Below the pieces are notes generated by a model. That model saw nothing but the letters and a program-made list of their open reading frames with translations. It was not told the DNA's origin and searched no databases. Shown piece after piece: positions 5,063 to 32,808 of a stretch of DNA of 42,125 nt (positions are counted from its first letter, which is position 1; each line of letters opens with the position of its first letter). The translations under genes and the position numbers were made by a program. The DNA comes from a virus (Duplodnaviria > Heunggongvirae > Uroviricota > Caudoviricetes): positions 1 to 42,125 of IMG/VR virus record IMGVR_UViG_2537561991_000019; one strand, written 5' to 3'.

Positions 5063-5122
5063 TCCTCACGCTCCATAAACGACAAAACCGCCCGCAGGCG
5101 GTTTCACATAAAACATTTTGCA

Positions 5123-6411: not shown

Positions 6412-6415
6412 GGGA

Positions 6416-7114: not shown

Positions 7115-7123
7115 CAGAGCCTC

Positions 7124-7453
7124 CTATGCCACGACCTGTTCAAAATCTGCCGTTATGGTTACCCACAACGCCCCCACGCTTGCCGACCATTTACGACAAA
7201 CCACCCTGATCGGCTTCCAGTCATAAGGTGGCGTCCACTGAAATGCGCGGACGCCGCCGTGCCGTTCCAGAAAAGCTTTTAAAGATGGGTGTTCACATTT
7301 ACGAACACGTATCGTCACGCTGTAAGTCGACAACTGGTTATTCAGTCCCGCCGCACGACGCTGTTCATAACCATCGCCCAGCTTCACTGTCACCACTTTC
7401 GGCTCTGATACCACATTCATATCCGGGCGCACTTTCCAGTGAAACGTCTCCAT
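7124..7453 (-). CDS. M: Tail tip protein M
   Basis: 109 aa, METFHWKVRPDMNVVSEPKVVTVKLGDGYEQRRAAGLN..., lambda M-like; position between H and L. Confidence 0.9.
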   Translation of the reverse strand: METFHWKVRPDMNVVSEPKVVTVKLGDGYEQRRAAGLNNQLSTYSVTIRVRKCEHPSLKAFLERHGGVRAFQWTPPYDWKPIRVVCRKWSASVGALWVTITADFEQVVA

Positions 7454-10400: not shown

Positions 10401-10518
10401 AAGACCGTTCTGCATCGCTGGCTGCACCATTCAGAAGGTTTTTGATACGGGGAATTTCATTTTTAAACTCTGCCGCATCAATCCCCAAATCAATGACCAG
10501 GTTGGCTATCTGGTCCAT
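7453..10518 (-). CDS. H: Tail tape measure protein H
   Basis: Start set at the internal Met (MDQIANLVIDLGIDAAEF) preceded by GGAGG 8 nt upstream. Long coiled-coil-rich middle; C-terminus ...EINNDGTNGQIGPAALKVVYDL... matches the lambda H C-terminus. About 1021 aa. Confidence 0.9.
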   Translation of the reverse strand: MDQIANLVIDLGIDAAEFKNEIPRIKNLLNGAASDAERSSARMQRFMERQTQAARQTTQAASSAATAASVHAQTVEKNAQAHERMAREVEKTRQRMEALSQKMREEQAQAMALAEAQDKAAAAFYRQIDSVKQASAGLQELQRIQQQIRQARNSGGIGQQDYLALISEVTAKTRVLTQAEEEATRQKVAFIRQLKEQATRQNLSSSELLRAKAAQLGVSSAAEVYIRKMEQAGKATHSLGLKSAAARQEIGVLIGELARGNLGALRGSGITLANRAGWIDTLMSPKGMMLGGVIGGIAAAVYGLGKAWYDGQKEGEEFNRQLSLTGHYAGVTAGQLWTLSRAISGNGITQHAAAGALAQVVGSGAFRGNDIGMVARAAAKMERSVGQSVSDTINQFKRLKDDPVNAAKALDNELHFLTATQLEQIRVLGDQGRSSDAARIAMSALAEETGRRTADIDNNLNALGSTLKYLSDLWSRFWDAAMNIGREDSLDEQIAALQEKVSRAKRLPWTASSSQVEYDQQRLNDLQEKKRQKDLQDAKEQAERNYQEQQKRRNAENAALNRMNETEAARHQREIARINAMQYADQAVRDAAIQRENERYEKAIKKKTSENRNDEATRLLLQYSQQQAQVEGQIAAARQSAGLTTEKMTEAHKQLLALQQRISDLAGKKLTADEKSVLAHKDELIQALTLLDAKQQELQKQTALNDLKKKSIQLASQLAEEERALRQQHDLDIATTGMGDKQRQRYQTQFSLQQKYQQQMEQLERDSKQKGTYGTDEYRNAEQMLTDSLNRQLNENRRYWQEQELMQADWKNGAMRAFQNFTESADNAAGTAEQMFTAAFNSAGNALATFCTTGKLNFRSFTASLLSDLAKIMSQMVMMQAVKGIGSAFGWGSAAAASVTPNADGGVYQSADLSRYSGTVVNRPTFFAFAKGAGVMGEAGPEAILPLRRGADGKLGVVADIGGSGMAMFAPQYNIEINNDGTNGQIGPAALKVVYDLGKKAAADFMQQQARDGGRLSGAYR

Positions 10519-10842
10519 AACGCACACCTCCGGAAATACCTTCCCCAAGATGCATCAGTTCTTCGTCCGTTCGCTCCGGTATCCCGTTCTCTTCCGGTAA
10601 AAGGCTGAAATCAGCCACCGCAGCATCACTGCTGCCGGACACCATTCTCACGATCAATGCCTTCAGCGAGGCAAACTGCGCATCCATCCACACATCACTG
10701 AAGCTCTGCATCCGGAAATAATCGCCCCACTCCCCAAGCTCAGTGGCCGACATTTCCGACAGCATCCGCCGCCAGTCTGCCCGCCGGAACTCCCGGGCAA
10801 GCCGCATGACAAACTGCATTTCCCGCGTCAGGACTTTTCCGG
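10490..10842 (-). CDS. T: T segment of the tail assembly chaperone GT, reached by programmed -1 frameshift from G
   Basis: 109-aa ORF in the -1 frame relative to G. The T frame is open from just inside the 3' end of G. A GGAAAAG-type slippery motif sits on the minus strand (plus-strand cttttccgg, 10834-10842) immediately before the G stop. Confidence 0.7.
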
Positions 10843-11214
10843 CGTCAGCACCTCATGCTCCAAATCCCCGGCATTCTCAATGGCTCCCATACCGCTCAGC
10901 GACAGAACCATCTCCGCCCCCGCACCCAGGGCATCATACGACCATGTTGTAATTACGGATGCGCAAAGCGTCTCAACATCCTGAGACTGTTCCGCATTCC
11001 ACAGTGAGCGGGAAACCAGCCAGGCATTGATATCCATCCCCATCCGCAGAAAAGCAATCTGTCGTTCAGCCTCCGGCAGTTCTCCCTCTTCGGCATCAAA
11101 CTTTGCCGTTCGCTGCTGAACAAACGCCAGATATTCAATTCTCTGCAGCCCGGACAGCTCACTGAGCACCACGGACTGCTTTTCATAATTAAACGTGCCC
11201 TGTTTCAGAAACAT
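10828..11214 (-). CDS. G: Tail assembly chaperone G
   Basis: MFLKQGTFNYEKQSVVLSELSGLQRIEYLAF... resembles lambda G; GGTGGAG Shine-Dalgarno upstream of tandem ATGs; position between V and H. Confidence 0.85.
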   Translation of the reverse strand: MFLKQGTFNYEKQSVVLSELSGLQRIEYLAFVQQRTAKFDAEEGELPEAERQIAFLRMGMDINAWLVSRSLWNAEQSQDVETLCASVITTWSYDALGAGAEMVLSLSGMGAIENAGDLEHEVLTPEKS

Positions 11215-11274
11215 CATGTTCTCCACCTGCAAAAAAGCCCCGGATAACCGGGGCAAATGATGAGTATCGTCCTG

Positions 11275-12018
11275 TTAACCTGCGGCGCTGACAGTCACCG
11301 TAGCCACTGCCACAAAATCGCCGTCAGAAGTCATGCCCACAATGCTGACACTGCCCTGCTTCACGCCTTTCACCGTGGCCACAAGCCCGTTCAGGGTCAC
11401 CGTGGCAGTCTGTGGATCTGTCGAATGCACACTGATCGCTTTGTCACTGGCTCCGTCAGGTTTTACTGTAAAGGTCAGCGTGGTGGTTGCTCCCACATTG
11501 ACACTGGCGGATGCCGGTGCCACCGTCAGCCCGGTAACGCCCACAGTTTGAGTGCCCTCCTCTGCCAGATATGGACGCCCCACACCGCTGATTTTCACGG
11601 TGCGGGTCATCACGTCTTTTGAGGCAATGGTTTTACCCAGTGAACTCAGCCAGCCACGGAAAACATCAACAGTGCCGTTGGGATATTTGATACGAAACGC
11701 GCAGACTTCACCGGAGTCGAACAACTGAACCAGTTTTTTCTGCCCGCTGTCACCCGGACGCCAGGCCAGCGTCGCCGAAGTATCACCGACGGATTTCTGC
11801 CCCTGGGTTGTCGTTTTCCAGTCTGCATCTTCATCATCGAGATAAGTGTCATCTTCTGCATCAGCGGTCATTTCGCCAGGTTGCAGATCCTTCACCATCG
11901 CAAGACGCAGCCAGTCAGTGTCCGACAGAGGATTCGCAAACGCATCGCCGTTGCCGGTATACATCCAGAACGTCGTCCCCGCACCTTTCGTCTTTGCCAG
12001 TGGATTTGGTGTGGTCAT
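11275..12018 (-). CDS. V: Major tail protein V with C-terminal Ig-like domain
   Basis: Start at internal Met MTTPNPLAKTKGAGTTFWMYTGNGDAFANPLSD..., closely resembling lambda V; C-terminal Thr/Val-rich Ig-like region. Confidence 0.9.
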   Translation of the reverse strand: MTTPNPLAKTKGAGTTFWMYTGNGDAFANPLSDTDWLRLAMVKDLQPGEMTADAEDDTYLDDEDADWKTTTQGQKSVGDTSATLAWRPGDSGQKKLVQLFDSGEVCAFRIKYPNGTVDVFRGWLSSLGKTIASKDVMTRTVKISGVGRPYLAEEGTQTVGVTGLTVAPASASVNVGATTTLTFTVKPDGASDKAISVHSTDPQTATVTLNGLVATVKGVKQGSVSIVGMTSDGDFVAVATVTVSAAG

Positions 12019-12028
12019 TACCACCTCC

Positions 12029-12430
12029 TTAATTCGTGTACGTGATCTGGTACGTGATTTCCGCCATCGCCCAGGTGGCCATCTCATTATCACGTTGATA
12101 GTTAAAACCGAGTGGGATCAGGGTGTCGATGAGTCCGGAAAGTGCCGGTACATCATTCAGAGCCGGGAAAATGGTGCTCTCCATCCACATATCCAGCTCT
12201 GAATCCGGTGCCTGTGCCCGGATGAAGACGGCAATATGCAGAACAGCCTGCCAGTCATCTTCATCCGTCATTTTTCCGGTGTACTGAGCATCACTCAGCC
12301 ACACCGCCACGGCAGGCAGTTCCTGCGCATCAATAAATGCCGGAAGCCCGTCAAAAAACGTGGCGCTGTCTCCACACTGTTCCCGAAGGCGTGCCAGTAC
12401 GACCTGGCGGATTTGTGTATGTCGGTTCAT
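12029..12430 (-). CDS. U: Tail terminator protein U
   Basis: Start chosen at MNRHTQ (ATGA overlap with the Z stop); ...ATFFDGLPAFIDAQELPAVAVWL... resembles lambda U. Confidence 0.8.
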   Translation of the reverse strand: MNRHTQIRQVVLARLREQCGDSATFFDGLPAFIDAQELPAVAVWLSDAQYTGKMTDEDDWQAVLHIAVFIRAQAPDSELDMWMESTIFPALNDVPALSGLIDTLIPLGFNYQRDNEMATWAMAEITYQITYTN

Positions 12431-13017
12431 CGGGTCAGCCATAATCTCAGTTGTTGTTTCAGTACATACCCCAGCTGTTTCGGCATTTCCGCAGCAATGA
12501 TGCGGTCGCGGGCATCTTCAAATGCCTGTGTCAGCGGTCCGGACAGCGGGATTTTCACTACCTCCACAGGAAGACGATTTTTCCTTGGCCTGCCCTGATA
12601 GTCATGCCCTGTTGCAAAACGCGCTTCAGGAAGACGCCTCAGAACATGCCAGCGGCCATTCGCCAGTTGCTGAACAAATGCCCCCCGGAAAAAGTATTTT
12701 CCCACTCTCAGTCCTTCACCAGCACGCCGCCGTGTTGTGTTCAGTTTGATGGCGGGCAGATTGCCCCGGTTAACGCGGATCCTGGCCGTCATTTTTCCTG
12801 ACGGACTGGCTTTAAACACCCGGACACGCTGACGTACCAGTTTCAGGGGGATCCCTTTCACCTGGTTATCTCCCGCAACGGTATTCCCGGCAACCTGCCG
12901 GGTGGCAACCGAGACCGCTTTCTGTGCCACACGGTTTATCGCCCATGCGCTGGCCTGTGGCACCATACGGGTATCAAGGCTGTTCAGATTGCGGATGGCA
13001 TTCTCAAGCCCCTTCAT
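12427..13017 (-). CDS. Z: Minor tail / tail completion protein Z
   Basis: 196 aa; gene order and size match lambda Z (family assignment from memory). Confidence 0.75.
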   Translation of the reverse strand: MKGLENAIRNLNSLDTRMVPQASAWAINRVAQKAVSVATRQVAGNTVAGDNQVKGIPLKLVRQRVRVFKASPSGKMTARIRVNRGNLPAIKLNTTRRRAGEGLRVGKYFFRGAFVQQLANGRWHVLRRLPEARFATGHDYQGRPRKNRLPVEVVKIPLSGPLTQAFEDARDRIIAAEMPKQLGYVLKQQLRLWLTR

Positions 13018-13028
13018 CCCACACCTCT

Positions 13029-13304
13029 TTACTCAATAAAGATCATTGGCTTACCGTTAAAGCGTTCATGCCGTGTGACCGTCCAATGTTGTCCGTCATA
13101 AACAACGCGATCCCCGCGCCGTGGGCGGTATCCCGAAGAAAACACCACCAGAGAGACCGCAGGTCCGGACAGAGCATTCAGCTCTGCCAGTGTTTCTCCC
13201 GGGATCACAGTCATATCGACATCATTAATCGAGGCTGTCTTTCCCATCTTTCTGACCGTGATCGCATCCATACGCGCTGCCAGCCGGGAAAAGGGATCAG
13301 ACAT
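13029..13304 (-). CDS. Small head-tail joining protein (FII-like by position)
   Basis: 91-aa ORF between the head genes and Z; assignment by synteny only. Confidence 0.35.
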   Translation of the reverse strand: MSDPFSRLAARMDAITVRKMGKTASINDVDMTVIPGETLAELNALSGPAVSLVVFSSGYRPRRGDRVVYDGQHWTVTRHERFNGKPMIFIE

Positions 13305-13620
13305 TGAGTTTTACCGGCACTTCTTCTGCACTGGTTCCGGCATCTGCCCAGACAACCCCGACCAGCGGATCAGAGCCGCTGTTAGTCAGCTGAACTTTTC
13401 CGGACTTCAGATAAACCTTCTTACCCGTTTTCATGTCATCCGTTTTCAGCTTAGGCAGCATAAACACACCTTCGGTCAGGCCGTCGCCTGTTTCACCCTG
13501 TGGAATATCGGTCAGCGCCACCGCAAAAACATCACCCACCTGCACCAGGTCTCCGCTGCTGATGGCTGCACTGGCAACAATCGCCACCGTTTTTCCTTCT
13601 TCTACAAAATTCTTTGCCAT
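13297..13620 (-). CDS. Small head-associated protein (DUF2190-like)
   Basis: Start set at MAKNFVEEGKTV, preceded by GGAG; sits directly after the capsid gene. Family recalled from memory. Confidence 0.4.
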   Translation of the reverse strand: MAKNFVEEGKTVAIVASAAISSGDLVQVGDVFAVALTDIPQGETGDGLTEGVFMLPKLKTDDMKTGKKVYLKSGKVQLTNSGSDPLVGVVWADAGTSAEEVPVKLNV

Positions 13621-13706
13621 AACTGTCTCCGCACAGCCCCGTTCAGGGGCTGATTTCAGGTACAAAAAAAGCCCTTACGGGCCATCAGAGTTGTTGTCTG
13701 CGACGT

Positions 13707-15665
13707 TTACGCCGTACATTTCACCAGACCGCGGTGATCAACTGGCGCGACACCGGCGTCAATACGCACTTTCGTTGTCACGCCATCCACACTGAAGCCC
13801 TCCATCTGATCAATATATGGCGTATCCACACCGTTGAGATAAGCCACTTCAATCGTATCGGAGCCTTTTGACGCAGCCAGGTAGAAGGTGGTCTGGCTGT
13901 TATCATCAAGACGAGGCTCTGCAATAACGGTCGCAAAATCTTTCACCGGGTTAATAATACCGGCGTTAATGTCAGCCCCCTTGACACTTGAGGAGCGAAT
14001 GACCTGGTTAGCAACAGACTCCATCGCCGTCGGTACCAGTACGAACGCAGGACGAATATTCAGATGACGCTCCCCCTCTTTCTGAACGCGCATCAACTGG
14101 CGGGCTTTATCCAGCGATGCCACGTCCATTGCAGCGCTCTCCAGTACGTTTGCATGTTTCGCTTTATCGAACAGACTTACATTATCTGTGGAGATTTTCG
14201 GGTTAGACGTCAGAATGGCATAAACCAGATCGGCAATAGTGGATTTCGCCGCACGGCCCAGCTTCATCGGGACATCGGTCAGCATATTCAGATCATCATT
14301 GATAATGGCCTGACGGGTGATACTGAACAGCTCGCCATAGGTCGCCAGTGCAATAGTGGCCTGTTTATCTCCGGTGGTGACGTATTTATATTCCGCCCCT
14401 TCACGCACCTGACGCAGAGCACTGAAGCCCCCCATACCCACACGATGGGCAATTTTAAAATCAGACAACTGACCTTTCCGCGTCCACTGTTCATAGGTTT
14501 CAGGGGCATCTTCCCAGCCCTGCAGAATGGCTTTGTTCGCAACATCCAGCAGAATATTACCGAAGTCAGACGTACTGTGTGTGAACGCCGCACCGACCAT
14601 CTGCATCGGGTTATAACTGGAAATCCCAATACCCCGTTCAGTCAGTGACATACGGGCATATTCACGCAGGGTCATCCCGTTGTAGACATTATCACGTTCG
14701 GTTTTTTCAAATCCGGCACGCGCCATCAGCGCCTGGCGAATCCCGTCCCCCACAAAATTACCGTTACCGGCATAAATATGAGCCGGGGTATTTTTATTGG
14801 ATGGCGTGGACTCGCGCCCCATCTCGTTCAACAGCTTTTCGCGGGCCTGCTCCAGCGAACATTCAGGATCGGCAAGACACTGAGCCTGCAGCGTCTGATA
14901 ACGCCCGCCAAACATGGCAAACAGATCATTAATACCGTTTACACGCGCTTTTTGCTCTGCCAGTACCTGCGCACGGATGCTGTTTTCATCCACCACGGGT
15001 GCTGCTGCCTGCACTGGCGTCCGGGAGGCTGCAGGTTCATCATCCTGTACGCGTGGAGCACTGTTGCGTGGCGGAGTAATCATGTTTCGAATGGATTCCG
15101 GCATCTTTTTAAATTCCTCTGTACGTTTTGACTGAATACATGCCATTGCCTTAACGGCTGGCGTCACCTGATCAGCAAATCCATGTGCCAGACATTCGGC
15201 ACCGGACATCCAGGTCTCATCCGCCAGCATGGCAGCAATTTCATCGGTGGTTTTCCCGGTTTTCTGTGCATAAGCGGGTAACAGAACCGCCTCAACCTTA
15301 TCGAGCAGGTCGGCATAGGTGCGCATGTCCTCCGCATCACCGCCCGTAAAGCCAAATGGTTTATGAATCATCATGAAGGTGTTTTCCGGCATAATGACCG
15401 GGTTTCCCACCATCGCAATGACCGACGCCATTGACGCCGCCACACCGTCGACATAAACGGTAATGGACGCACCATGTGTTTTCAGTGCATTAAAAATGGC
15501 GATGCCTTCAAAGACATCGCCACCCGGTGAATTGATATGGAGATTAATGTGGGTGATATCGCCCAGTGCATTCAGATCACTGATAAACTGCTTCGCTGTA
15601 ACACCCCAGAAACCAATCTCGTCATAAATATAAATATCCGCGTCACTCTGGTGACCAGCCTGCAT
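13707..15665 (-). CDS. Prohead protease (ClpP/S14-like) fused to major capsid protein
   Basis: N-terminal region has a ClpP-like serine protease signature (…INSPGGDVFEGIAIFNALK…MASVIAMVG…MMIHKP…); the C-terminal ~350 aa are capsid-like. Start set at the internal Met MQAGHQSDADIYIYDEIG just after the portal stop. Confidence 0.8.
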   Translation of the reverse strand: MQAGHQSDADIYIYDEIGFWGVTAKQFISDLNALGDITHINLHINSPGGDVFEGIAIFNALKTHGASITVYVDGVAASMASVIAMVGNPVIMPENTFMMIHKPFGFTGGDAEDMRTYADLLDKVEAVLLPAYAQKTGKTTDEIAAMLADETWMSGAECLAHGFADQVTPAVKAMACIQSKRTEEFKKMPESIRNMITPPRNSAPRVQDDEPAASRTPVQAAAPVVDENSIRAQVLAEQKARVNGINDLFAMFGGRYQTLQAQCLADPECSLEQAREKLLNEMGRESTPSNKNTPAHIYAGNGNFVGDGIRQALMARAGFEKTERDNVYNGMTLREYARMSLTERGIGISSYNPMQMVGAAFTHSTSDFGNILLDVANKAILQGWEDAPETYEQWTRKGQLSDFKIAHRVGMGGFSALRQVREGAEYKYVTTGDKQATIALATYGELFSITRQAIINDDLNMLTDVPMKLGRAAKSTIADLVYAILTSNPKISTDNVSLFDKAKHANVLESAAMDVASLDKARQLMRVQKEGERHLNIRPAFVLVPTAMESVANQVIRSSSVKGADINAGIINPVKDFATVIAEPRLDDNSQTTFYLAASKGSDTIEVAYLNGVDTPYIDQMEGFSVDGVTTKVRIDAGVAPVDHRGLVKCTA

Positions 15666-15678
15666 CCTGAACCAAGAA

Positions 15679-17187
15679 TTATTCTTCGGACTGGTCGTCG
15701 GTGTGCTGCGGCTCCTGTCGTTTCGTTGCGGCACTGCTGCCTCCTTTATCACTGGCCGGATCGGTATCAAATACCAGATCCAGCTTGCGGTTTTCATCAA
15801 TTTCGGCCTTGCGCCGACGTTTGACATCATCCGGATTACGACCACCAGCACGTACCCAGTCTGATTCTGTCGCCGCTCCACCACGAATCTGGATTTTCCA
15901 GGCCTCAGCCTCCTTAACAGGGTCAATCCACGGCATCACCGGTCCGGAATACACCGCGGTATACAGTGAAGAACGGTCAAGATCGCGGGGTAGCCTGATA
16001 ACACCGGATGCCACAGCCTGTTTCAGCCAGGCACGATACATCGGGCGGGTGACGGCACCAATAAACCAGTCCTGCAGGATCAGGTAGCCATCTGTGGATT
16101 CAACCAGCTCCTGACGCTGGGCGCTGTAAGTGCCGTTATAGTTGCGTGCCGTACTGGAAAAACTCAGACGACTGCCCGCCGCCACGGCACGCAACTGACC
16201 ATTACGAAAAGTTTCAAGGTTAGGATTGGGACGATCCGACTTCACCATTCCGATTTCTTCGCCGGGTTTCAGATCGTCGTAAATAATGCCTGGCTGAATG
16301 GTAAGCTCGCGTTCATTCTCCTTGCTGCCATTACCATCCGGTTCATAGCTCTGCCCGTCGCCTTTCCGGATGTACATCCCCAGAGCAGCGGCGACCCTTG
16401 CTGCAGTCAGCTCAGAATCTTCATACTCTTTCAGGGCACTGAGGCGGATCAGCACACCGGACAACAAAGACGTCCCGCGCATCTGGTGCAGACGGCGAAC
16501 AAATTTAAGATGCAGCATTCGCTCTGCATCCACTTCTTTGGTTTCCATCTGCCGCCAGGATACGGGACGACTTTTATACACCAGATATTTTTCGGGACGC
16601 CCCCAGTCATCAACAAACACGCCCTGATTCAGCCTGTTGCTCTCATCACTGGTCATGGGAATAAAGTCTGGCTCGAGCGCCTCCAGCCAGAAATGAACAC
16701 CGGCAGAAGGCGTCAGGTTGTTTATGCGCCCGGAAACCATCTGGGCAAACACCTCACCATCGCGCAGCCAGGTACGCAACATCAGACGTTCCAGCATCGG
16801 ACGGGTAAACTGCCCGGTGACTTCCGGGCTGACAGACCATTCACTCCATCGGGTGCGTATCTCCGCTGCCAGATCACGGGCAATGGCCCCATTGCGTAAT
16901 ACCGGATGTGGCTCGACAATAATCCCGTTTTTCCCCACCACCCGTTCTTCCAGCTTGTCAAATACACCAATAACCAGATCGTGGTTGTTATCAAGGTAAC
17001 GGGCCTGCTCACGTAACGACACGGCCCCGTACTGGCTTAACTGGTCGGCAGTTCGGTTTTCCCGCCGGGCTTTGTGTGTCCGCGTCGTTTTTACGGCCTC
17101 ATAAGCCTGGATCACCGCACGGGAACGCAGCCTTGCCGCTTTCCATCCTGGTGAAAAAACGCCAATCACATCATCAAGAATTGCCAT
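15679..17187 (-). CDS. Portal protein
   Basis: About 502 aa between W and the protease/capsid gene. Start ATG overlaps the W stop as TGATG (checked at 17185-17189). Confidence 0.85.
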   Translation of the reverse strand: MAILDDVIGVFSPGWKAARLRSRAVIQAYEAVKTTRTHKARRENRTADQLSQYGAVSLREQARYLDNNHDLVIGVFDKLEERVVGKNGIIVEPHPVLRNGAIARDLAAEIRTRWSEWSVSPEVTGQFTRPMLERLMLRTWLRDGEVFAQMVSGRINNLTPSAGVHFWLEALEPDFIPMTSDESNRLNQGVFVDDWGRPEKYLVYKSRPVSWRQMETKEVDAERMLHLKFVRRLHQMRGTSLLSGVLIRLSALKEYEDSELTAARVAAALGMYIRKGDGQSYEPDGNGSKENERELTIQPGIIYDDLKPGEEIGMVKSDRPNPNLETFRNGQLRAVAAGSRLSFSSTARNYNGTYSAQRQELVESTDGYLILQDWFIGAVTRPMYRAWLKQAVASGVIRLPRDLDRSSLYTAVYSGPVMPWIDPVKEAEAWKIQIRGGAATESDWVRAGGRNPDDVKRRRKAEIDENRKLDLVFDTDPASDKGGSSAATKRQEPQHTDDQSEE

Positions 17188-17405
17188 CAGAACCTCGCCA
17201 GCCGGTACCCGGGATGCCCCCGTCGTCGTGTAATCAGAGCCGCAAGGCGGCGCTCCCACTCCTGCCGTCCCTGCCGGATCTCAGATAAGTTTTCCATGGT
17301 CATCTGCTGACCATTAAAGGTGACGGATTTTCCGTCCAGCACCGCCATTTCAGCTTCCGTATAACGCTGAATCATGGCTTCGATATCATTCTGGTTCATA
17401 ACCAT
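17187..17405 (-). CDS. Head-to-tail joining protein W-like
   Basis: 72-aa ORF between large terminase and portal, overlapping both, as lambda W does. Confidence 0.55.
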   Translation of the reverse strand: MVMNQNDIEAMIQRYTEAEMAVLDGKSVTFNGQQMTMENLSEIRQGRQEWERRLAALITRRRGHPGYRLARF

Positions 17406-19498
17406 CCTCCGGAAGTCAGCCAGGGGTTAACATCGTCAGTTACTGTTTTCTTCCGTTTTTGTTTTTTAACAGGCGTGGATACCGGTTCCGGTGAGGGTGA
17501 CGGTTTGGTACTGTCCGGGACACACTCCAGCCAGGTTTCCCGGCTCGCCCATTCCGGTGCATCCGGCCAGCGGATCTTTTCGTATCCATGCAGAATGACC
17601 AGAGCCTCGGCATACACCATCAGGTCAAAAGCTTCGTTGGCACCGCGACCCGGCTTACTCCATTTCCCGTCACTGCTCCGCTCTTCATACGTCAGTTCGT
17701 CGTAAAACCAGCTCCCCAGCCAGTCAGGGAAATGCACATAGCCGGGACCTGGAGAGTCACGCCATAACGCGTTATTCACCCGGTCTTTCAGGGCATCCGT
17801 CTGAAGAAGCCAGAGCGGCACATCACCTGCGGCCTGCGCCCGTCGGCCCGTTCGTCCGGTGTTATCAGGGAATGTACGGGTGATCAGTTTTGCGCGCCGG
17901 ATGCTGTCGCCCTTAAACAAGTAAATACGTTTACCAAGGCCATCACGACGGCAACGACGCCAGAATTTATAGGCATTATCAGTGACCCCGTCTTCACCGC
18001 CGGAATCCACCGCCATTGCCATCAGTCGCATTTGTTGAGAAGGATCGGAGGCCAGCGGCCAGCTTTTATGAAAAACATCCGTCAGCAGGACATCCCAGTC
18101 TTCCGGATAGCTGGCCGGATCAATTCGCTGGCTCTCCCCGTCGCTGTCACCGCGCAATGACTGCGTGATGTTGTAACGATCAATAATCCAGCGTTCGCCA
18201 CGGCTGCCATAGCCCGTTACCTGAACCACAAAACGGCGATGACGTCCCGCCTGCACATCAACTGTCGCCACCAGGAAATTAACGCCATCCGGCACACTGC
18301 GGGAAGGAACTGGCTCTGCCCGCTGCTCAAGCAGTTCACTTTTTCGTTGCTCCATGCTGGCACGGGGAAGATAAGGTAATCCCCAGTCGGTATTGATAAC
18401 CGTCTTGAGTGTTTCTTCACTTCCGGTTGTCTCGTATTCCTGTTCTGCAGTAAGCAGTTTGTAAACGAGTTGCGAGAGTGTCTGGTAAGCAGCTGCCGGA
18501 CCCTCCATCCAGAATGACGCAATACGTGAGCGTCGGGGATCACCATAACGACTGCCATCCGCATTGATGGATTCACCATCCCGCAACCAGACCCCACGTC
18601 CGTTCAGCTCACGTTTTTGTTCAGGCATAATCCGTCCTGAACAGGAAGGACACTGAATATAAGCCGCCTCACTTGCCAGCACAGGATCGGCAATATCACG
18701 GAAACCAGCAACCACATCGCCGCAGGGCTGAAAATACTCACCACAGTGTGGGCAGGGCCAGTACCAGCGACGTCGATCGCCACGGTTATAGAGTGACAGT
18801 ATCCCCGTGGTTGGTGGAGCCTCATGCGGTGAAGTCCGTCGCCATTTCACATCCTTCACATCCCTGCCGGGGGAACTCTCCACCAGCGTCATACCACTGG
18901 ACATAAATGTGGTGGTACGTTTTGAGGCAAGAGAGAAGGCATCCCCCTCGCCATCAATATCTTCCGGAAAACGGTCATAATCCGTCAGCGCCACGCATTT
19001 ATAATCTGATGAGGACATGATATTGACTGACGGCCAGCCGATTTTCAGGTAGTTGCCAGCAAGGAATGTTCTGTCATAAACGTTGTTGTCATTTTTGTTC
19101 GGACTCAGGCGACTGACCACTTCCGGGCTGACGCGAAACGTTCTGGCAAGTCGTTTTTTGGAGTGTTCGCGGGCTTTTTCCTCCGTCATCTGAATGATCA
19201 GCATATCCGCAGGATCGCAAATCACGTTGTAAATCACCCAGCCGTCAATCAGGCCGATAGTCTTGCCGGTTCGTGCCGGACCAACAAATATCACTGCGTC
19301 GTATTCACGCGAGGCCAGGCAGTTCATCGGCTCAATAACATACGGTGCCACCAGCGGATCCCACGGGACTGAGTTCCCTGCCCCCATGGGCACCCGCATA
19401 TACTGAGCAACGGCATCAGCAACCCGCATTCGTCTCGGTGCGCGAAGGATATAACCTGAATCGGTTCGTGCTGCCTTTGCGGTTTCCTGATTCAGCAT
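17396..19498 (-). CDS. Terminase large subunit (lambda gpA family)
   Basis: 700 aa with a Walker A-like motif (VGPARTGKT) and a C-terminal nuclease region; order Nu1-A-W-B. Confidence 0.9.
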   Translation of the reverse strand: MLNQETAKAARTDSGYILRAPRRMRVADAVAQYMRVPMGAGNSVPWDPLVAPYVIEPMNCLASREYDAVIFVGPARTGKTIGLIDGWVIYNVICDPADMLIIQMTEEKAREHSKKRLARTFRVSPEVVSRLSPNKNDNNVYDRTFLAGNYLKIGWPSVNIMSSSDYKCVALTDYDRFPEDIDGEGDAFSLASKRTTTFMSSGMTLVESSPGRDVKDVKWRRTSPHEAPPTTGILSLYNRGDRRRWYWPCPHCGEYFQPCGDVVAGFRDIADPVLASEAAYIQCPSCSGRIMPEQKRELNGRGVWLRDGESINADGSRYGDPRRSRIASFWMEGPAAAYQTLSQLVYKLLTAEQEYETTGSEETLKTVINTDWGLPYLPRASMEQRKSELLEQRAEPVPSRSVPDGVNFLVATVDVQAGRHRRFVVQVTGYGSRGERWIIDRYNITQSLRGDSDGESQRIDPASYPEDWDVLLTDVFHKSWPLASDPSQQMRLMAMAVDSGGEDGVTDNAYKFWRRCRRDGLGKRIYLFKGDSIRRAKLITRTFPDNTGRTGRRAQAAGDVPLWLLQTDALKDRVNNALWRDSPGPGYVHFPDWLGSWFYDELTYEERSSDGKWSKPGRGANEAFDLMVYAEALVILHGYEKIRWPDAPEWASRETWLECVPDSTKPSPSPEPVSTPVKKQKRKKTVTDDVNPWLTSGGWL

Positions 19499-19992
19499 TA
19501 CTCCTCCTGCTGTAATTCCTCCTCATCATCCGCACCTGCTTCGGTCACCCGCAGGGCTATCTGATCGCGCAGATCATCAATAATGGACTGAACACGGCTC
19601 ACAGCGGCAGGCTGCAGACCGCAGTCACGTTCCAGAATATCCGGTAATGTCTCCAGTACCTGCACGACCGCTTTTGCCCAGATGGCAAACTCCCGTCTGA
19701 CATCACTGGCCGGAATGAGTTGTGCCGTTTCCTGTTCGAACTTAAGACGCTCACGTTCAGACTGATACCAGGCTTTGCGCTCATGCGCGTCCATTTCGCC
19801 TTCTGCAACCGGCGGTGGTAATGCCAGAAATGCCGACACAATATCAACCACCCGATAAAGCTTGAGGTTGCTTTCATGCCCCCCTGCAACGGGTAGATTT
19901 TGCAGCCTTGCCGCAGCAGTCTGGCGATGTACACCTGACAGTGCCGCCAGTTGACTGATATTCAGCGTCAGATTTTTTAACTCTTGATCCAT
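19498..19992 (-). CDS. Terminase small subunit
   Basis: 164 aa with an N-terminal HTH-like segment (LNISQLAALSGVHRQTAAARL) and acidic C-terminus; directly upstream of and overlapping the large subunit. Confidence 0.7.
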   Translation of the reverse strand: MDQELKNLTLNISQLAALSGVHRQTAAARLQNLPVAGGHESNLKLYRVVDIVSAFLALPPPVAEGEMDAHERKAWYQSERERLKFEQETAQLIPASDVRREFAIWAKAVVQVLETLPDILERDCGLQPAAVSRVQSIIDDLRDQIALRVTEAGADDEEELQQEE

Positions 19993-20149
19993 ACCCGCTC
20001 CAGAATGTTTTAAACATGCATCTTGCGAACAACTTTAGGCAAACGGTGTTAGTGATGAACAAAAAACAATCAAAATCGACACCATAAAAATAAAACTAAT
20101 GCAATATCAATGCATTACAGTAGTGGTGATGACGAATGAAATTTCAAAA

Positions 20150-20200
20150 ACTAGCCTTTTTCCGCGCCGCTCCCGCCCCGTGGCAGGCCACCCCACCGGA
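20150..20200 (-). other. Predicted cos site (cosN-like nicking region)
   Basis: Minus strand reads ...CCACGGGGCGGGAGCGGCGCGG..., resembling lambda ACGGGGCGGCGACCTCGCGGG, about 180 bp upstream of the terminase small subunit start, with AT-rich sequence between them. Confidence 0.4.
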
Positions 20201-20445
20201 AGGACCCGCCAAAATGAGAGTGATTATCACCATTGCTGATGAATAAATTGATGAAAATCATTGAAACGCCTTTCAGCAAGATAACGGCGACGGTCGTTGT
20301 TGAACTCCGTAACTCTGCTACTAAGGTTAAAAGCATGGCCATCTTTTGCCACCGGCAAATCTTCAATGGATTTCCCCTGCCGGTTTTTTATTCCTCACAT
20401 TATCGCAGCCCCTCAGTGAAGGGCTGCTGTAATGCCTGCTGTTAC

Positions 20446-20829
20446 TCAGTAACGACCGCGCCTTCCGGTAATTTCATACCGGCAAATACCGGACAGCCCG
20501 GGGATCGTTATCTGCAGCTGGTTAGCCAGGGAGTTAATCTCAGCGACCAACACTGGCTTCGTATAGCGCCATGCCGCCAGCCCTTGTCCACAGAAGCTCG
20601 CCATATCTTTTTTCTGATCAAACTCATGACACTTCATATTGAGCTGCGCACTTAAGCTGTTGCGATGCTGAAGTTCTCCGGTGAAGTAGTCATCCAGGAC
20701 TTTATAGGCTGCATATTTAAATCCGGGGTTTAGCCATGCTGCATAATCATAAGCAACAAACTTCCCGCCATATGTTCCACCGTGTACACCGCGCTCAGTA
20801 AAAACCACAGATTCGTGTTTTTTCTCCAT
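20446..20829 (-). CDS. Hypothetical late-region protein
   Basis: 127-aa ORF immediately downstream of Rz; no family confidently recognised. Confidence 0.45.
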   Translation of the reverse strand: MEKKHESVVFTERGVHGGTYGGKFVAYDYAAWLNPGFKYAAYKVLDDYFTGELQHRNSLSAQLNMKCHEFDQKKDMASFCGQGLAAWRYTKPVLVAEINSLANQLQITIPGLSGICRYEITGRRGRY

Positions 20830-21297
20830 CTACTTAATGCGCTGGGTGCGGATATATTCCTGCGCCCCTTCCAGTTGCTTCTGCATCGTCATCAACCGTT
20901 CTCTGAGGGTGAAATAATCCCGTTCAGCGGTGTCTGCCAGTCGGGGGCTGGTTGCATTATCCATGCTGGTGGGTCCGGTGGCTTCACGCACGGCTGCGGA
21001 GCAACTGGCATTGACCCGCAGGCGCTTACGACCAGCGGCAACATCAGCGCGCAGAGTTTCATTTTCAGTTTTCGCATCGGCTAACTCCTTCGTGTATTTT
21101 GCATCGATCGCAGCAACATCACGCTGACGCTGCTGCATGTCAGCGATGGTGGCGGTCGCCTGCTTCAGCTCACTGACTTTTTTATCACGCTGTTCTTTGT
21201 AGGCGATGGCGTTATCACGGTAATGATTAACAGCCCATGACAGGCAGGCGATGATACAAATAACCAGAGCGGAGATAATCGCGGTTACTCTGCTCAT
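20830..21297 (-). CDS. Rz: Spanin, inner membrane subunit (i-spanin)
   Basis: 155 aa, [34 protein letters not shown]..., near-identical in pattern to lambda Rz. Confidence 0.9.
20892..21077 (-). CDS. Rz1: Spanin, outer membrane lipoprotein subunit (o-spanin), embedded in the +1 frame of Rz
   Basis: [22 protein letters not shown]... has a lipobox (VVSAC) and a Pro-rich body ending ...[15 protein letters not shown], as lambda Rz1. Exact start Met uncertain. Confidence 0.8.
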
Positions 21298-21770
21298 ACC
21301 TCAATCTCTCTGACCGTTCCGCCTGCTTCTTTGAATTTTGCAATCAGGCTGTCAACTTTATGCTCGAACTGACCATAACCAGCGCCCGGTAGTGAAGCCC
21401 AGATATTGCTGCAACGGTCGATAGCCTGACGAATATCACCGCGATCAATCATCGGTAAAGCGCCACGCTCTTTAATCTGCTGCAGAGCTACAGCGTCCTG
21501 GCTTTCTGGAGAAAAATCTTTCAGGCCAAGCTGTTTACGGTAAGCATCCCACCAGCGTGAAAGAAGCTGGTAACGTCCGGCGGCTGTTGATTTGAGTTTG
21601 GGGTTTAGCGTGACAAGTTTGCGAGGATGATCGGAGTAATCCGTGAATAACTCACCACCTACAATAACGTCGTAGCCGTGATTGCGGGTTGGCTGTCGCC
21701 CGTTATCCGTTCCTTCTGACCACGCCAACATATCGAGGAAAGCTTTACGCTGGGAATTTAGTACCTGCAT
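21294..21770 (-). CDS. R: Endolysin (lambda R-type lytic transglycosylase)
   Basis: 158 aa, ...[20 protein letters not shown]...[20 protein letters not shown]..., matching lambda R almost residue for residue. Confidence 0.95.
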
Positions 21771-21773
21771 AAA

Positions 21774-22109
21774 TTACTCCTTAGAGCCACCAAACTTGTT
21801 ACCGATTACTCGCATTGCAGCCCCACGAATAGCATCGACACCGATCAGCCCCACACCGCCACCAATGGCAACAGAAAGTGATTTAGGCCATCCGACATAC
21901 TCAAGAGCGGATGCAAAGGTCAGCGTCAGAGCGCCACAGAGCAAAATCTCGAGCGTTTTTCGCTTCCAGCCACCACCACCGCCAAAATAGGCGATGCGCA
22001 AACCAGCCATAACGATCGACATAATCACTGCACCCAGCGGCGTGTCTCCACGCCACCAGCTCTGAAACAACTCCAGCCAGTCCGGCCAGGTATTTGGGTT
22101 ATGAGGCAT
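21774..22109 (-). CDS. Holin (three predicted transmembrane segments; not lambda S-like)
   Basis: Start at MPHNPNTW preceded by GAGGTGAGAG; three hydrophobic stretches; immediately upstream of the endolysin. Confidence 0.75.
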   Translation of the reverse strand: MPHNPNTWPDWLELFQSWWRGDTPLGAVIMSIVMAGLRIAYFGGGGGWKRKTLEILLCGALTLTFASALEYVGWPKSLSVAIGGGVGLIGVDAIRGAAMRVIGNKFGGSKE

Positions 22110-22140
22110 TTCGTCATCTCTCACCTCGCGATATTTGCGG

Positions 22141-22170
22141 GTGCTGTGTTGGAAATAAAAAGGCCACGCA
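22141..22170 (-). terminator. Intrinsic terminator (tR'-like) between the methyltransferase gene and the holin
   Basis: Minus strand GGCCACG-TTGC-GTGGCC followed by TTTTTATTT (plus-strand hairpin 22152-22168), about 30 nt upstream of the holin start. Confidence 0.55.
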
Positions 22171-22185
22171 ACGTGGCCACCAGAA

Positions 22186-23238
22186 TTATTTCCCCACCAG
22201 TTCACTTACCTCTTTCACCGTCTGATTAAACCGCTCTGACTCAAGTTCAACACCTAACGCCCGACGCCCCAGCGCCATTGCTGCTTTTATTGTGGAACCG
22301 GATCCCATAAAGAAATCAGCAACCAGATCACCAGGGCGACTACTGGCATTGATTATTTGCCGGAGCATATCCGCCGGTTTCTCGCACGGATGTTTACCCG
22401 GGTAGAACTGAACGGGTTTATGCGTCCAGACATCGGTATAAGGCACGGAGACTGATACGGAGAAATAGCGCCGGAGAGATTTAAACTCATCCAGCAATTC
22501 AGAATATTTGCGATTCAGTGAATCATAAGATGCCACCAGCTGGTGGTGTGGTTGTTCCAGTTGTTGTTCCTGAAACTTCTCTGCCGCTATACGGGAAAAC
22601 AGTGCCTGTAACTTCCGATAGTCAGCCTCATTCGGCAACTGCCACTGACTGGCACCAAACCAGTGGGAAACCATATTTTTCTTACCTGTGGCTTCGGCAA
22701 TTTGTTTTGCCGTTATACCCAGTTCGGCACGAGCATCCCTGAAATACGATATCAGCGGTGCCATTATGTGCTGTTTGAGTTCCCTTTCTTTTGCTGCATA
22801 GCCGTCACTTTTGCCGCGATATGGCCCCTGGTAATGTTCAGCAAACAGAACGCGCTCTGTGGCAGGAAAATATGCGCGCAGACTTTCTTTATTACACCCA
22901 TTCCAACGTCCGGACGGCTTCGCCCAGATGATATGGTTAAGCACGTTGAAACGTTCACGCATCATGATCTCAATATCAGATGCCAGGCGATGCCCACAGA
23001 ACAGATAAAGGCTTCCGGCAGGTTTTAACACCCGCCAGAACTGGGCCAGACAGTGGTCCAGCCACTTAAGGTAATCTTCGTCCCCTTTCCACTGATTGTC
23101 CCAACCGTTGGGTTTCACCTTGAAGTACGGCGGATCGGTAACAATCAGGTCAATGGAATCATCAGGCAGGGACTGAATAAAATGCAGGCAATCAGCGTTG
23201 ATTAAATCAACACTGTTTATTTTTACAGTATTTTTCAT
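22186..23238 (-). CDS. DNA methyltransferase, beta-class N6-adenine/N4-cytosine type
   Basis: DPPY motif (VTDPPYF) near the N-terminus and an AdoMet-binding FxGSGST motif (FFMGSGST) near the C-terminus. No Shine-Dalgarno before the only available ATG. Confidence 0.8.
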   Translation of the reverse strand: MKNTVKINSVDLINADCLHFIQSLPDDSIDLIVTDPPYFKVKPNGWDNQWKGDEDYLKWLDHCLAQFWRVLKPAGSLYLFCGHRLASDIEIMMRERFNVLNHIIWAKPSGRWNGCNKESLRAYFPATERVLFAEHYQGPYRGKSDGYAAKERELKQHIMAPLISYFRDARAELGITAKQIAEATGKKNMVSHWFGASQWQLPNEADYRKLQALFSRIAAEKFQEQQLEQPHHQLVASYDSLNRKYSELLDEFKSLRRYFSVSVSVPYTDVWTHKPVQFYPGKHPCEKPADMLRQIINASSRPGDLVADFFMGSGSTIKAAMALGRRALGVELESERFNQTVKEVSELVGK

Positions 23239-29448: not shown

Positions 29449-29669
29449 GCAGCACCTCCGAGATGCTTCATGTTTTTTCCGGAGCGAAAGGCTATAAGCG
29501 GCATACTGACGCGGTAATTACGGCCCAGCGGTTCACAAACCACCTTCTGACATTCACGGTCAACCAGGCTAACACGTAGAACATGCCCTGCAGGCGTGGT
29601 GTACCACTGACCCGGACGAGGACAACGGAAAGTCTGATTGGTAAAACGTTTGAAAATATTCCGGATCAT
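29445..29669 (-). CDS. Small hypothetical protein
   Basis: 74-aa ORF with ATGA-type overlaps to both neighbours. Confidence 0.3.
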   Translation of the reverse strand: MIRNIFKRFTNQTFRCPRPGQWYTTPAGHVLRVSLVDRECQKVVCEPLGRNYRVSMPLIAFRSGKNMKHLGGAA

Positions 29670-30109
29670 TTGCGCCCCCTTACCTCTGAAGAGTTCAGCG
29701 ACGAATGAATAAGACGGGCAAGAAATGCCGCATCGTTAATTCGGTCATACAGACTTACAGCCAGCGGTGATTCAGCTTTTTCCAGCATGGGATAAAGCTG
29801 CTGCAACCAGACCTGATGAATTGATGAAATGTAGGAATAGAGAACGCTGGCGTTATGTGCAACGTCGCTCGGTACAGAGGGCTTTGAAAGCTGTTTCTCC
29901 ATCTGGTTAAAGGCATTGATGTATGCCTCTTTGAACTGGGCAGCACGTTTACCCGTGAAACCCATAGCAAGAAACGCAAAGCCATCGCGGGTTATTTGAT
30001 AGCAAGGTAGTTTGCGAGTACCGCCGTTGGGCTGGCGTACCAAAATTGATGTCTCCGCAAAATTGCGGGCACAAAACTCTGGAGAACAATCCAAAATGCG
30101 AATCTTTTT
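29666..30109 (-). pseudogene. 3' fragment of a Rha-domain regulatory gene split by the IS66 insertion
   Basis: ...YQITRDGFAFLAMGFTGKRAAQFKEAYINAFNQME... is the remembered Rha core; the reading frame rejoins in frame with the fragment at 32809-32931 when the IS and one copy of the target duplication are removed. Confidence 0.7.
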
Positions 30110-30162
30110 GTAACCGGCTCATTTAAACCGTCTGGTCTGTTTCCTCCGGCTCTACAAAAATA

Positions 30163-30840
30163 ATGTCCATCATTTTTAATGGACACTATCGTATGAAACA
30201 CCGGACCTGGATCACTGAAGCTTTACGTCTTCACTTTGAAGAACATTTACCCCGGGTTGTGGCCGGGCGTCGCCTGGGTGTACCAAAATCAACAGTTTGT
30301 AGTATGTTCGTGCGCTTTCGGAGAGCTGGCCTTTCGTGGCCTTTGCCCGCAGGCATGTCGGAGCAGGAACTTGATGCCTGCCTTTACGGACAATTTTCCA
30401 CGGTACCAGTCGTACGTCCTGAAAGCACCGTTATATCCGAAGCCCCCGTGGTAAAAAAACGTCCCCGGCGGCCCAACTTCCCTTATGAGTTTAAAATCGC
30501 CTTAGTGGAGCAGTCACTGCAGCCCGGAGCCTGTGTGGCGCAGATCGCCCGGGAAAACGGAATCAACGATAACCTGCTCTTCAACTGGCGCCATCAATAC
30601 CGGAAAGGTGGCCTGCTGCCTTCCGGAAAAAATATGCCGGCACTGCTTCCCGTGACGTTAACGCCGGAGCCGGATAATAAAATCCCGGCCCCCGCACAGG
30701 AACCAGAGCAGATAAATACACCGTCCGACAGTCTGTGTTGTGAGCTGGTTCTGCCGGCCGGAACTCTCAGGCTTAAAGGTAAACTGACGCCGGCGTTATT
30801 ACAGACACTTATCCGCGAAATAAAAGGGAGCAGCCACTGA
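30163..30840 (+). CDS. IS66-family accessory protein (orfA)
   Basis: First ORF of the element with an HTH-like segment; stop overlaps the orfB start. Confidence 0.65.
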   Translation: MSIIFNGHYRMKHRTWITEALRLHFEEHLPRVVAGRRLGVPKSTVCSMFVRFRRAGLSWPLPAGMSEQELDACLYGQFSTVPVVRPESTVISEAPVVKKRPRRPNFPYEFKIALVEQSLQPGACVAQIARENGINDNLLFNWRHQYRKGGLLPSGKNMPALLPVTLTPEPDNKIPAPAQEPEQINTPSDSLCCELVLPAGTLRLKGKLTPALLQTLIREIKGSSH

Positions 30841-31187
30841 TGATATCTCTCCCTGCAGGTTCGCGTATCTGGCTGGTTGCAGGTATCACCGATATGCGAA
30901 ATGGCTTTAACGGCCTGGCATCAAAAGTTCAGAACGTCCTGAAGGATGACCCGTTCTCCGGACACCTGTTCATCTTCCGCGGACGCCGGGGTGACCAGAT
31001 AAAAGTGTTGTGGGCTGACAGTGACGGACTGTGCCTCTTCACCAAACGCCTGGAGCGGGGCCGCTTCGTCTGGCCAGTCACCCGTGACGGCAAGGTGCAC
31101 CTTACTCCGGCTCAGTTATCCATGCTTCTTGAAGGTATCAACTGGAAGCACCCGAAACGAACGGAACGCGCTGGAATCCGCATATAA
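30840..31187 (+). CDS. IS66-family accessory protein (orfB)
   Basis: 115 aa, MISLPAGSRIWLVAGITDMRNGFNGLA..., characteristic IS66 Orf2. Confidence 0.8.
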   Translation: MISLPAGSRIWLVAGITDMRNGFNGLASKVQNVLKDDPFSGHLFIFRGRRGDQIKVLWADSDGLCLFTKRLERGRFVWPVTRDGKVHLTPAQLSMLLEGINWKHPKRTERAGIRI

Positions 31188-31206
31188 CCCGTTGTAAAGT
31201 GAGGAT

Positions 31207-32779: not shown

Positions 32780-32808
32780 ATATCAATACGGTTCTGACGA
32801 GTCGCTTA

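Follow-up and report, generated by a model that had tools for sequence, protein, structure and literature searches.

The locus raises the question of where the DNA of this prophage is cut for packaging and which bases its cohesive end carries. The window, that is, the whole stretch of 42,125 nt that was analysed, carries a lambdoid prophage with its late genes on the minus strand. An earlier note had pointed to a GC-rich minus-strand block, CCACGGGGCGGGAGCGGCGCGG, between 20140 and 20200 as a cos site with a cohesive end differing from that of lambda. In this study, we found CCACGGGGCGGGAGCGGCGCGG at 20183..20162, within that interval. The comparisons described below make it very probable that this minus-strand site is the cos (the DNA-packaging cut site) of a lambda-like E. 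coli prophage. The exact 12-base overhang, GGGCGGGAGCGG, is the best prediction available, and our confidence in it is somewhat lower than our confidence in the identity of the site.

The minus-strand stretch around the site reads ...GGCGGGTCCTTCCGGTGGGGTGGCCTGCCACGGGGCGGGAGCGGCGCGGAAAAAGG..., and positions 20162-20183 consist of CCACG, GGGCGGGAGCGG and CGCGG. From 20232 to 20139, the minus strand runs through GGTGATAATCACTCTCATTTTGGC, GGGTCCT, TCCGGTGGGGTGGCCTGCCACG, GGGCGGGAGCGG and CGCGGAAAAAGGCTAGTTTTTGAAATTT in this order. The first of these, the conserved block GGTGATAATCACTCTCATTTTGGC (20208..20231, minus strand), lies just upstream of cosQ and is homologous to the lambda sequence at the equivalent spot. 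The heptamer GGGTCCT (20201..20207, minus strand) is identical to lambda 48473-48479 and corresponds to cosQ, the packaging-termination signal (PMC4669245). The cosN segment, CG|GGGCGGGAGCGG|CG (20165..20180, minus strand), shares with lambda the left half GGGCGG and both CG flanks. Alignment with lambda places the predicted 12-nt 5' cohesive end at 20167..20178 (minus strand), which is exactly the overhang that had been proposed in the earlier note. It is followed by an I2-like spacer, CGCGGAAAAAGGCTAGTTTTTGAAATTT (20139..20166, minus strand; phage bp 13-40). This spacer is recognisable in lambda and in the cyanophage Cr-LKS3 and is kept across all lineages with a DUF1441 terminase that we examined.

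According to this alignment, the top strand would be nicked between 20179 and 20178, after ...CCACG, and the bottom strand between 20167 and 20166. The predicted 5' ends of the virion DNA are GGGCGG... on the top strand and CCGCTCCCGCCC on the bottom strand. The lambda record has ...TTACGGGTCCTTTCCGGTGATCCGACAGGTTACG (...GGTTACG) at its right terminus and GGGCGGCGACCTCGCGGGTTTTCGC at its left terminus; the lambda cosN string on which the earlier comparison relied, in which the record ends with ...GGTTACG and begins with GGGCGGCGACCTCGCGGG, was quoted correctly. The gap between cosQ and the predicted top-strand nick is 22 nt in the window and 23 nt in lambda. Identity to lambda was 38/54 positions left of the nick, counted from the GGTGATAATCACTCTCATTTTGGC block, and 29/45 positions right of it. 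The dyad symmetry of cosN extends over 12 of 22 positions here compared to 10 of 22 in lambda.

We then searched the window with a pattern, ACGGGGCGGNNNNNNCGCGG, that retains only the positions shared with lambda, namely ACGGGGCGG, six free bases and CGCGG (ACG|GGGCGG......|CGCGG). The pattern had a single match in the 42 kb, at 20162-20181 on the minus strand, with 0 mismatches, while 0.03 matches would be expected by chance even with one mismatch allowed. The combination of cosQ with cosN's left half (GGGCGG) at a lambda-like spacing also occurred once in the window, against an expectation of 0.06.

The predicted overhang differs from that of lambda, GGGCGGCGACCT, at bp 7, 8, 9, 11 and 12, and the cohesive end is indeed unlike lambda's, as the earlier note had claimed. 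Previous work showed that natural cosN variation in lambda-like phages is concentrated at bp 7-12 and that changes in the right half are tolerated by lambda terminase (PMC4669245). The Feiss laboratory also reported conservation, among lambda-like phages, of cosQ and of the CG pairs on either side of the nicks (PMC4669245). The variant positions are 9 and 12 in N15 and 8, 9 and 11 in Gifsy-1 (PMC4669245). All five differences between the window and lambda lie inside bp 7-12, in exact agreement with the published rule. N15, phiD326 and Gifsy-1 are natural variants of the same kind, with cosQ and the CG flanks kept as in the window, but they carry two to three changes compared to five here. Since such phages are documented to vary at bp 7-12 as a rule (PMC4669245), the difference from the lambda end is unremarkable. 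The site adds one more case to a known pattern: cosQ, the CG flanks and cosN's left half stay constant, while the right half and cosB vary. By itself it raises no new question. The constancy holds although the large terminase is only distantly similar to gpA and the small subunit belongs to a different Pfam family.

The gene order around the site was examined as well. Upstream of cos on the minus strand lie a holin gene (21774-22205), a 158-aa ORF at the expected place of the endolysin that had no Pfam match (21294-21770), Rz (20830-21297) and a 127-aa ORF (20446-20829), which is the last gene upstream of cos. Downstream follow the small terminase, the large terminase, a small ORF and a portal gene of the lambda family. 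The site therefore occupies the position expected for a lambda-type cos, after the lysis cassette and before the small terminase. The ATG of the small terminase is at phage bp 187 (191 in lambda), that is, 186 nt past the predicted top-strand nick (190 in lambda), close to the distance of about 180 bp given in the earlier note. The block from bp -4 to +17 has 91% GC and the next 162 bp, up to the ATG, 34%, while the window as a whole has 52%. The likeness to lambda cosN that the earlier note had perceived thus extends to GGGCGG, the CG flanks and cosQ, in the right order and spacing and beside a gpA-family terminase, and the AT-rich stretch in which it had anticipated cosB and IHF sites contains a consensus site for IHF as well as a repeat, TCRWCAC, in three copies.

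The large terminase subunit (17396..19498, minus strand; 700 aa) belongs to the gpA family, with ATPase and endonuclease domains (PF05876, 8.5e-72; PF20454, 1.1e-85), and matches gpA-specific Pfam domains only. Its identity to lambda gpA was 25% over 623 aa (E 6e-19). The gpA-family large terminase and the lambda-family portal are thus shared with lambda, whereas the small subunit (19498..19992, minus strand; 164 aa) differs, as it is a Pfam DUF1441 protein (PF07278, 2.7e-41; phrog_141, annotated as terminase small subunit, 5e-74) and not Phage_Nu1. BLASTP of the small subunit against lambda Nu1 gave no match, and of the two Pfam families only DUF1441, not Phage_Nu1, was matched. When 11 DUF1441 proteins were compared with Nu1 by hhalign, the probability was no more than 13%. 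No meaningful match came from searching the PDB sequences with a profile of the small subunit, and the full-length model (pTM 0.36) yielded nothing informative in Foldseek. Among PHROG profiles, the small subunit also matched phrog_57, the family of Nu1, at 6e-10, and lambda Nu1 matched phrog_57 at 1e-76 and phrog_141 at 6e-8; the cross-matches covered most of the length in both directions.

The AlphaFold model of residues 1-65 was better defined (pLDDT 87.5, pTM 0.69) and showed a strand-helix-helix-strand-helix winged-helix arrangement. Its best PDB matches were the DNA-binding domains of small terminases, 7lwr, 7lw0 and 6hn7 chain B, the last from a study of PICI hijacking. The comparison with lambda gpNu1 (1j9i) gave a TM of 0.54 and an rmsd of 2.7 A. 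The E-values of the fold search were weak (0.04-0.35), as expected for a domain of 50 residues. Of the comparisons with Nu1, only the weak reciprocal PHROG matches, which link the two families, and the N-terminal domain modelled on its own were of use. They suggest that the small subunit likely works like Nu1 and may be a remote relative of it and a member of its family.

A motif, TCRWCAC, was defined after inspecting the AT-rich stretch. It has 26 occurrences in the window, and only at cosB do three fall within 100 bp; this count is only descriptive because the motif was defined after the region had been seen. The first copy, at bp 47 on the top strand, marks candidate R3, TCATCACCAC (20123..20132, minus strand; phage bp 47-56), a putative site of the small terminase. 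Its position is comparable to that of lambda R3 at bp 50-65 (PMC9026076). The second copy, on the bottom strand at bp 97-103, marks candidate R2, TCGACACCAT (20076..20085, plus strand; phage bp 94-103), which is inverted relative to R3 and R1. The third, at bp 121 on the top strand, marks candidate R1, TCATCACTAA (20049..20058, minus strand; phage bp 121-130), which is preceded by a conserved TGTTTTTTGTTC. Between R3 and R2 lies candidate I1, an exact match to the IHF consensus, TATCAATGCATTA (20105..20117, plus strand; phage bp 62-74). Exact matches to WATCAANNNNTTR number four in the 42 kb, one of them being candidate I1. Lambda I1 is at bp 79-91 and on the same relative strand, and the window's I1 is 17 bp closer to cosN.

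The order is therefore R3-I1-R2(inverted)-R1, as in lambda, although the repeats themselves are unrelated to the lambda R sites. The layout recurs, with lineage-specific repeats, in seven further lineages that carry this type of terminase (PhiR40_1, CP-1639, mEp043/LLS, Fels-1, Gifsy-2, VT1-Sakai and Chris1/yong2), and these support it independently of the motif count. In the relatives, CATCATCATCAT-type blocks occur at the position of candidate R3, and GTGTCGA or GATGATGA blocks are kept at that of candidate R2. At candidate R1, TTGTTC(A/G)(T/A)CA(C/T) is conserved in all aligned lineages. The cosB of Gifsy-2 has TTCGACACTGAA twice, in inverted orientation, together with a related GTCAGCACTGAA at the R3 position, and that of Fels-1 has CATCATCATCAT and ATGATGAT. 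N15 has been reported to have a single-R cosB (PMC4669245, PMC9026076). These results indicate a cosB of the lambda type by layout, in which the candidate sites may be bound by the small subunit and by IHF.

Relatives were found by a search of phage records. Left of the predicted nick, the record of phage cdtI (AB285204) matches the window at 99% identity, and it stops exactly at that nick; it ends with ...GGCCTGCCACG and starts with GGGCGGGAGCGTCGCGG. Tritos (OV696610), a linear record of a prophage of E. coli LF82, has the same ends despite an unrelated left flank. Both deposited records start with GGGCGGGAGCGT CGCGG and finish with ...CCACG, that is, at the predicted top-strand nick. Both phages are nearly identical to the window in cosQ, in cosN and over the ~20 bp that follow, and in cdtI the identity of 99% extends over the whole 272 bp left of the nick. 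They differ from the window in having T instead of G at bp 12 and, from about bp 34 rightward, another allele of cosB and of the small subunit (42% identical, 179 aa). The module boundary is of the same kind as the mosaic junction between lambda and phage 21. The record of the Hafnia phage yong2 begins with CGCGGG, at the predicted bottom-strand nick. The cos lineage has been implicitly recognised in GenBank since the deposit of cdtI. The papers on yong2, Ahp2 and LF82/Tritos give no cos-end data. Among the papers listed by a full-text search for GGGCGGGAGCG, none was on phages; they dealt with other topics, such as G-quadruplex DNA and VSV constructs.

An annotated end was found in the LLS record, which gives a 12-nt 5' end, GGGCGGCGCGCT, within the same flanks. 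mEp213, mEp043 and LLS have the same terminase type (small subunit 57-59% identical), flanks, cosQ and cosB layout as the window. The LLS paper explicitly derives this end from similarity to the putative mEp213 cos, citing Vahanian et al. 2017 (PMC12315714). The mEp213-type end is already treated in the literature as a putative lambda-like cosN variant, attributed to Vahanian et al. 2017 (PMC12315714).

Closer relatives were also available. The small terminases of the plaque-forming lambdoid phages mEp460, phi458 and Ayreon are 99% identical to that of the window. Their cos regions are 94-98% identical in mEp460 and phi458, and likewise in Ayreon outside cosN only. The cosN 12-mer of mEp460, a plaque-forming phage with its own complete genome record, is GGGCGGGAGCGG, identical to that of the window, whereas phi458 has T at bp 12. 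In none of the three records was a cos annotated, nor were ends reported for these phages. The Ayreon assembly derives from virion DNA and involved scaffolding and gap filling; the Ayreon paper only predicts cos packaging, the large terminase being grouped with cos packagers by phylogeny. We found that the Ayreon record is intact up to ...CCACGGGG. About 140 nt of chimeric filler follow, among them an internal stretch of the phage's own small terminase gene, before the record resumes at CCGTGGAAAAAGG. The chimera spans bp +3 to about +13, that is, cosN. A failure of the assembly precisely across these 12 bases is what would be expected from physical ends at cosN. The site marks where assemblies of virion DNA will probably break, as in the Ayreon record, and would define the left terminus of the virion map in this family of prophages.

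We also examined the conservation of the site in the population. Loci were fetched from IMG/VR (80 loci) on the criterion that the small terminase was at least 99% identical. Among 81 relatives, almost no variation was seen in cosQ, at bp -5 to +11 or at bp 13-40, and none in the TTGATATT core of the IHF site. Position 12 was polymorphic, with G in 18/81 and T in 63/81, and rare variants were seen at bp 7 and 11. The exact 12-mer of the window is a minority allele, present in 14 of the 76 typable loci.

Taken together, and by homology with lambda, these elements suggest how the prophage DNA may be packaged. Candidate R3, inverted R2 and R1, the three short repeats of the AT-rich cosB, would be bound by dimers of the small terminase (19498-19992), and IHF would bend the DNA at the consensus site between R3 and R2. 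With the R sites bound and the DNA bent, the large subunit of the gpA family (17396-19498) would be placed on cosN. It would then nick the top strand after ...CCACG, between 20179/20178, and, at a distance of 12 bp, the bottom strand between 20167/20166. The virion chromosome would thereby carry the 5' overhang GGGCGGGAGCGG at its left end. Once the following cos of the concatemer is reached, packaging would be stopped by cosQ (20201-20207) together with cosN.

It is possible, though in our judgement doubtful, that the site is a cos by descent but idle, because the prophage has been crippled by an insertion in the early right operon and the cut needs proteins supplied by a co-resident or superinfecting phage whose terminase is compatible. 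An IS66-family element (about 30095-32805) splits the gene of a phrog_821 regulator, with profile positions 2-184 at 32806-33537 and 187-324 at 29666-30094. In the common direction of transcription, the replication genes, any late-gene activator and the late genes all follow after the element. Since the early regulator is interrupted, a helper may be needed for this copy ever to be cut, and induction may fail for reasons unrelated to cos. However, the interrupted phrog_821 gene is not known as essential. The late region from cos through terminase, portal and head to tail is 99% identical to an apparently complete prophage of strain JE86-ST05, and the cos is intact. The JE86-ST05 prophage adjoins ybhC, the lambda attachment locus. 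Among the complete E. coli genomes of the collection searched, none covered 80% or more of the early region. Moreover, idleness would concern the activity of the site and not its identity, and is compatible with a lambda-type cos as the best explanation.

The reading of the block as a lambda-type cos leaves the geometry of the cut to be considered. Because the large terminase has only 25% identity to gpA and the small subunit falls outside Phage_Nu1, the nick geometry taken from lambda is an extrapolation. The overhang might have another length or register (e.g. 9-11 nt), or the nicks might be shifted by a base or two, which we consider very unlikely. The spacing between the conserved flanks is 9 nt in mEp460_4F5, 10 nt in CP-1639 and 11 nt in VT1-Sakai. 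Cr-LKS3, whose DUF1441-type small terminase is 40% identical to that of the window and whose large terminase is also of the gpA type, has published 5' cohesive ends of 9 nt, GGGCTCGCG, which begin with GGGC (PMC9303873). Its end lies between the same CG flanks and is followed by CGCGGAA..GGC.AGTTTTT, while its host and the rest of its genome are unrelated. With these 9-, 10- and 11-nt relatives and the 9-nt end of Cr-LKS3, the overhang length does therefore not appear to be fixed in the clade. Against a different geometry in the window, published and deposited ends always abut the conserved CG flanks, including those of Cr-LKS3, and the flanks of the window are exactly 12 bp apart. The centre of the cosN dyad falls between bp 6 and 7, and the variants with a short spacing could be assembly errors in the G+C-rich end region. 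These results favour a 12-nt end as predicted. Ends of the HK97 type (3') or of the P2 type (19-nt 5') appear unlikely, given that the large terminase was assigned to the gpA family and that cosQ and cosN resemble those of lambda. HK97 and P2 phages use other terminase families.

There is hardly any chance that the block is unrelated to packaging, being instead a chance GC-rich segment, a small coding gene, an RNA element or a transcription terminator. An ORF at 20151-20366 (71 aa, TTG start) spans the block and matches phrog_17397 at 1.7e-8, and an imperfect palindrome followed by a T-run lies 60-95 bp downstream. However, the match to the positions conserved with lambda is far beyond chance. 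The left half of the 71-aa ORF is swapped for unrelated sequence in relatives that retain cosQ and cosN, its extent is not conserved, and PhiR40_1 has a different ORF call there. ORF calls over the cos are flagged as probably spurious. The reading as an RNA or terminator was dropped, as an Rfam search gave no match and no terminator-like site was found. Headful (pac) packaging, with the cosN likeness as a relic, is equally improbable: nothing specific speaks for it beyond its having been named in the earlier note as an outcome that would refute a cos, whereas the large terminase matches both gpA-specific Pfam domains and is not of the P22, T4 or Sf6 type, the phylogeny groups that of Ayreon with cos packagers, cosQ, cosN and the spacer are strongly conserved in the 81 relatives, and the relatives' records are linearised at one defined point.

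A separate observation concerns the spacer that separates R3 from R2 (bp 55-96). Its nucleotide diversity, measured in 76 near-identical relatives, was 0.112, compared to 0.015-0.020 in flanking non-coding DNA and 0.014 at third codon positions of the small terminase, the last value being depressed because the loci were chosen by small-terminase identity. We counted 48 haplotypes within 57 bp. The invariant TTGATATT core is enclosed by an imperfect palindrome formed by the spacer, in which 90% of cells were paired; the covariation is weak and says little, with only 3 double changes among 46 haplotypes. Two conjectures, to which we give a low probability, are that the length of the cohesive end may be a natural polymorphism of the clade and that the 40-bp R3-R2 spacer may be under diversifying selection or templated quasi-palindrome mutagenesis. 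In the first case, the flanking DNA, and not a fixed geometry of the enzyme, would set where the nicks fall. In the second, selection on the spacer might, for example, tune packaging specificity or evade satellites that hijack the small terminase.

The cosN of the prophage is bounded on its right by a conserved block, CGCGG(A/G)AA..GGC.AGTTTTT, which directly abuts it at window positions 20146-20166 (phage bp 13-33, counted rightwards from the predicted top-strand nick). This block was conserved in phages of E. coli, Salmonella, Citrobacter and Hafnia and in one cyanophage, Cr-LKS3, where it lies at positions 1-35. A similar sequence, CGCGGGTTTTCGCTATTTATG, is found in the I2 region of lambda. 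The Feiss papers reported that the I2 region is required for termination (PMC4669245).

Lambda, the window and most relatives carry GGGTCCT at the cosQ position, whereas the same position in Chris1, Gifsy-2 and Fels-1 reads AAAAGGTACTCC(T/C)GG. Natural cosQ variation has been reported as not apparent (PMC4669245). Since these three phages have AAAAGGTACTCC(T/C)GG instead of GGGTCCT, cosQ varies within the terminase clade. One relative, L054 (IMGVR_UViG_3300007109_000117), retained GGGCGGGAGCGG CGCGGG and the entire cosB. Its left side was unrelated and very G+C-rich, and GGGTCCT was not found within 260 bp. L054 may have been rearranged or be satellite-like, or its contig may stop at a virion terminus.

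The conserved ACG and CGCGG flanks are separated by 12 nt in the window, and the distance was 9 nt in mEp460_4F5, 10 nt in CP-1639 and 11 nt in VT1-Sakai. A cohesive end of 9 nt has been published for Cr-LKS3 (PMC9303873). The 9-11-nt variants reflect either a genuine polymorphism in cohesive-end length or errors of sequencing or assembly in the G+C-rich end region.

Within candidate cosB, the spacer that separates candidate R3 from candidate R2 (phage bp 55-96; window 20083-20124) was a diversity hot spot across loci L012-L091, relatives sampled by 99% identity of the small terminase. Its nucleotide diversity was 0.112, compared with 0.014-0.02 in its surroundings. In the spacer region, 57 bp held 48 haplotypes, and some sites were tri- or tetra-allelic. 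The spacer contains an imperfect palindrome with the consensus ACTACTGTAAT.GATTGATATTACAGTGGT, centred on the invariant core TTGATATT. Covariation within this palindrome was weak.

The deposited genome of Ayreon (MF807953.1, 44300-44708) is chimeric precisely at cosN. Its sequence runs up to CCACGGGG, continues with about 140 nt of filler that contains an internal fragment of Ayreon's own small terminase gene, and resumes with CCGTGGAAAAAGG. A CDS annotated as 'putative late gene regulator' (44298-44582) overlies this artefact. In the window, an ORF of 71 aa that starts with TTG (20151-20366, minus strand) passes through cosQ and cosN, and its cos-encoded C-terminal half matched phrog_17397, a family of unknown function (1.7e-8). 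The cos of PhiR40_1 was overlain by a different ORF call. Both appear to be false gene predictions over conserved cos DNA, which have turned into a protein 'family'.

The late region, from the Rz lysis gene through the tail genes (window 2565-21297), was 99% identical to a prophage of strain JE86-ST05 that adjoins ybhC, the locus at which lambda attaches. The early region (21297-42125) is a mosaic unlike that of the late region, and among the complete E. coli genomes searched, none covered at least 80% of it. It carries a DNA methylase gene (22186-23238) together with PAPS-reductase-like, KilA-N and DUF968/HNH genes. A phage regulator gene of the early right operon is interrupted by an IS66-family element (30095-32805). 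The element comprises ORFs at 30163-30840 and 30840-31187 and a DDE transposase in two pieces (31207-31968 and 31958-32779). The flanking minus-strand ORFs, 29666-30094 and 32806-33537, matched phrog_821 positions 187-324 and 2-184, respectively. The prophage may be defective through this insertion.
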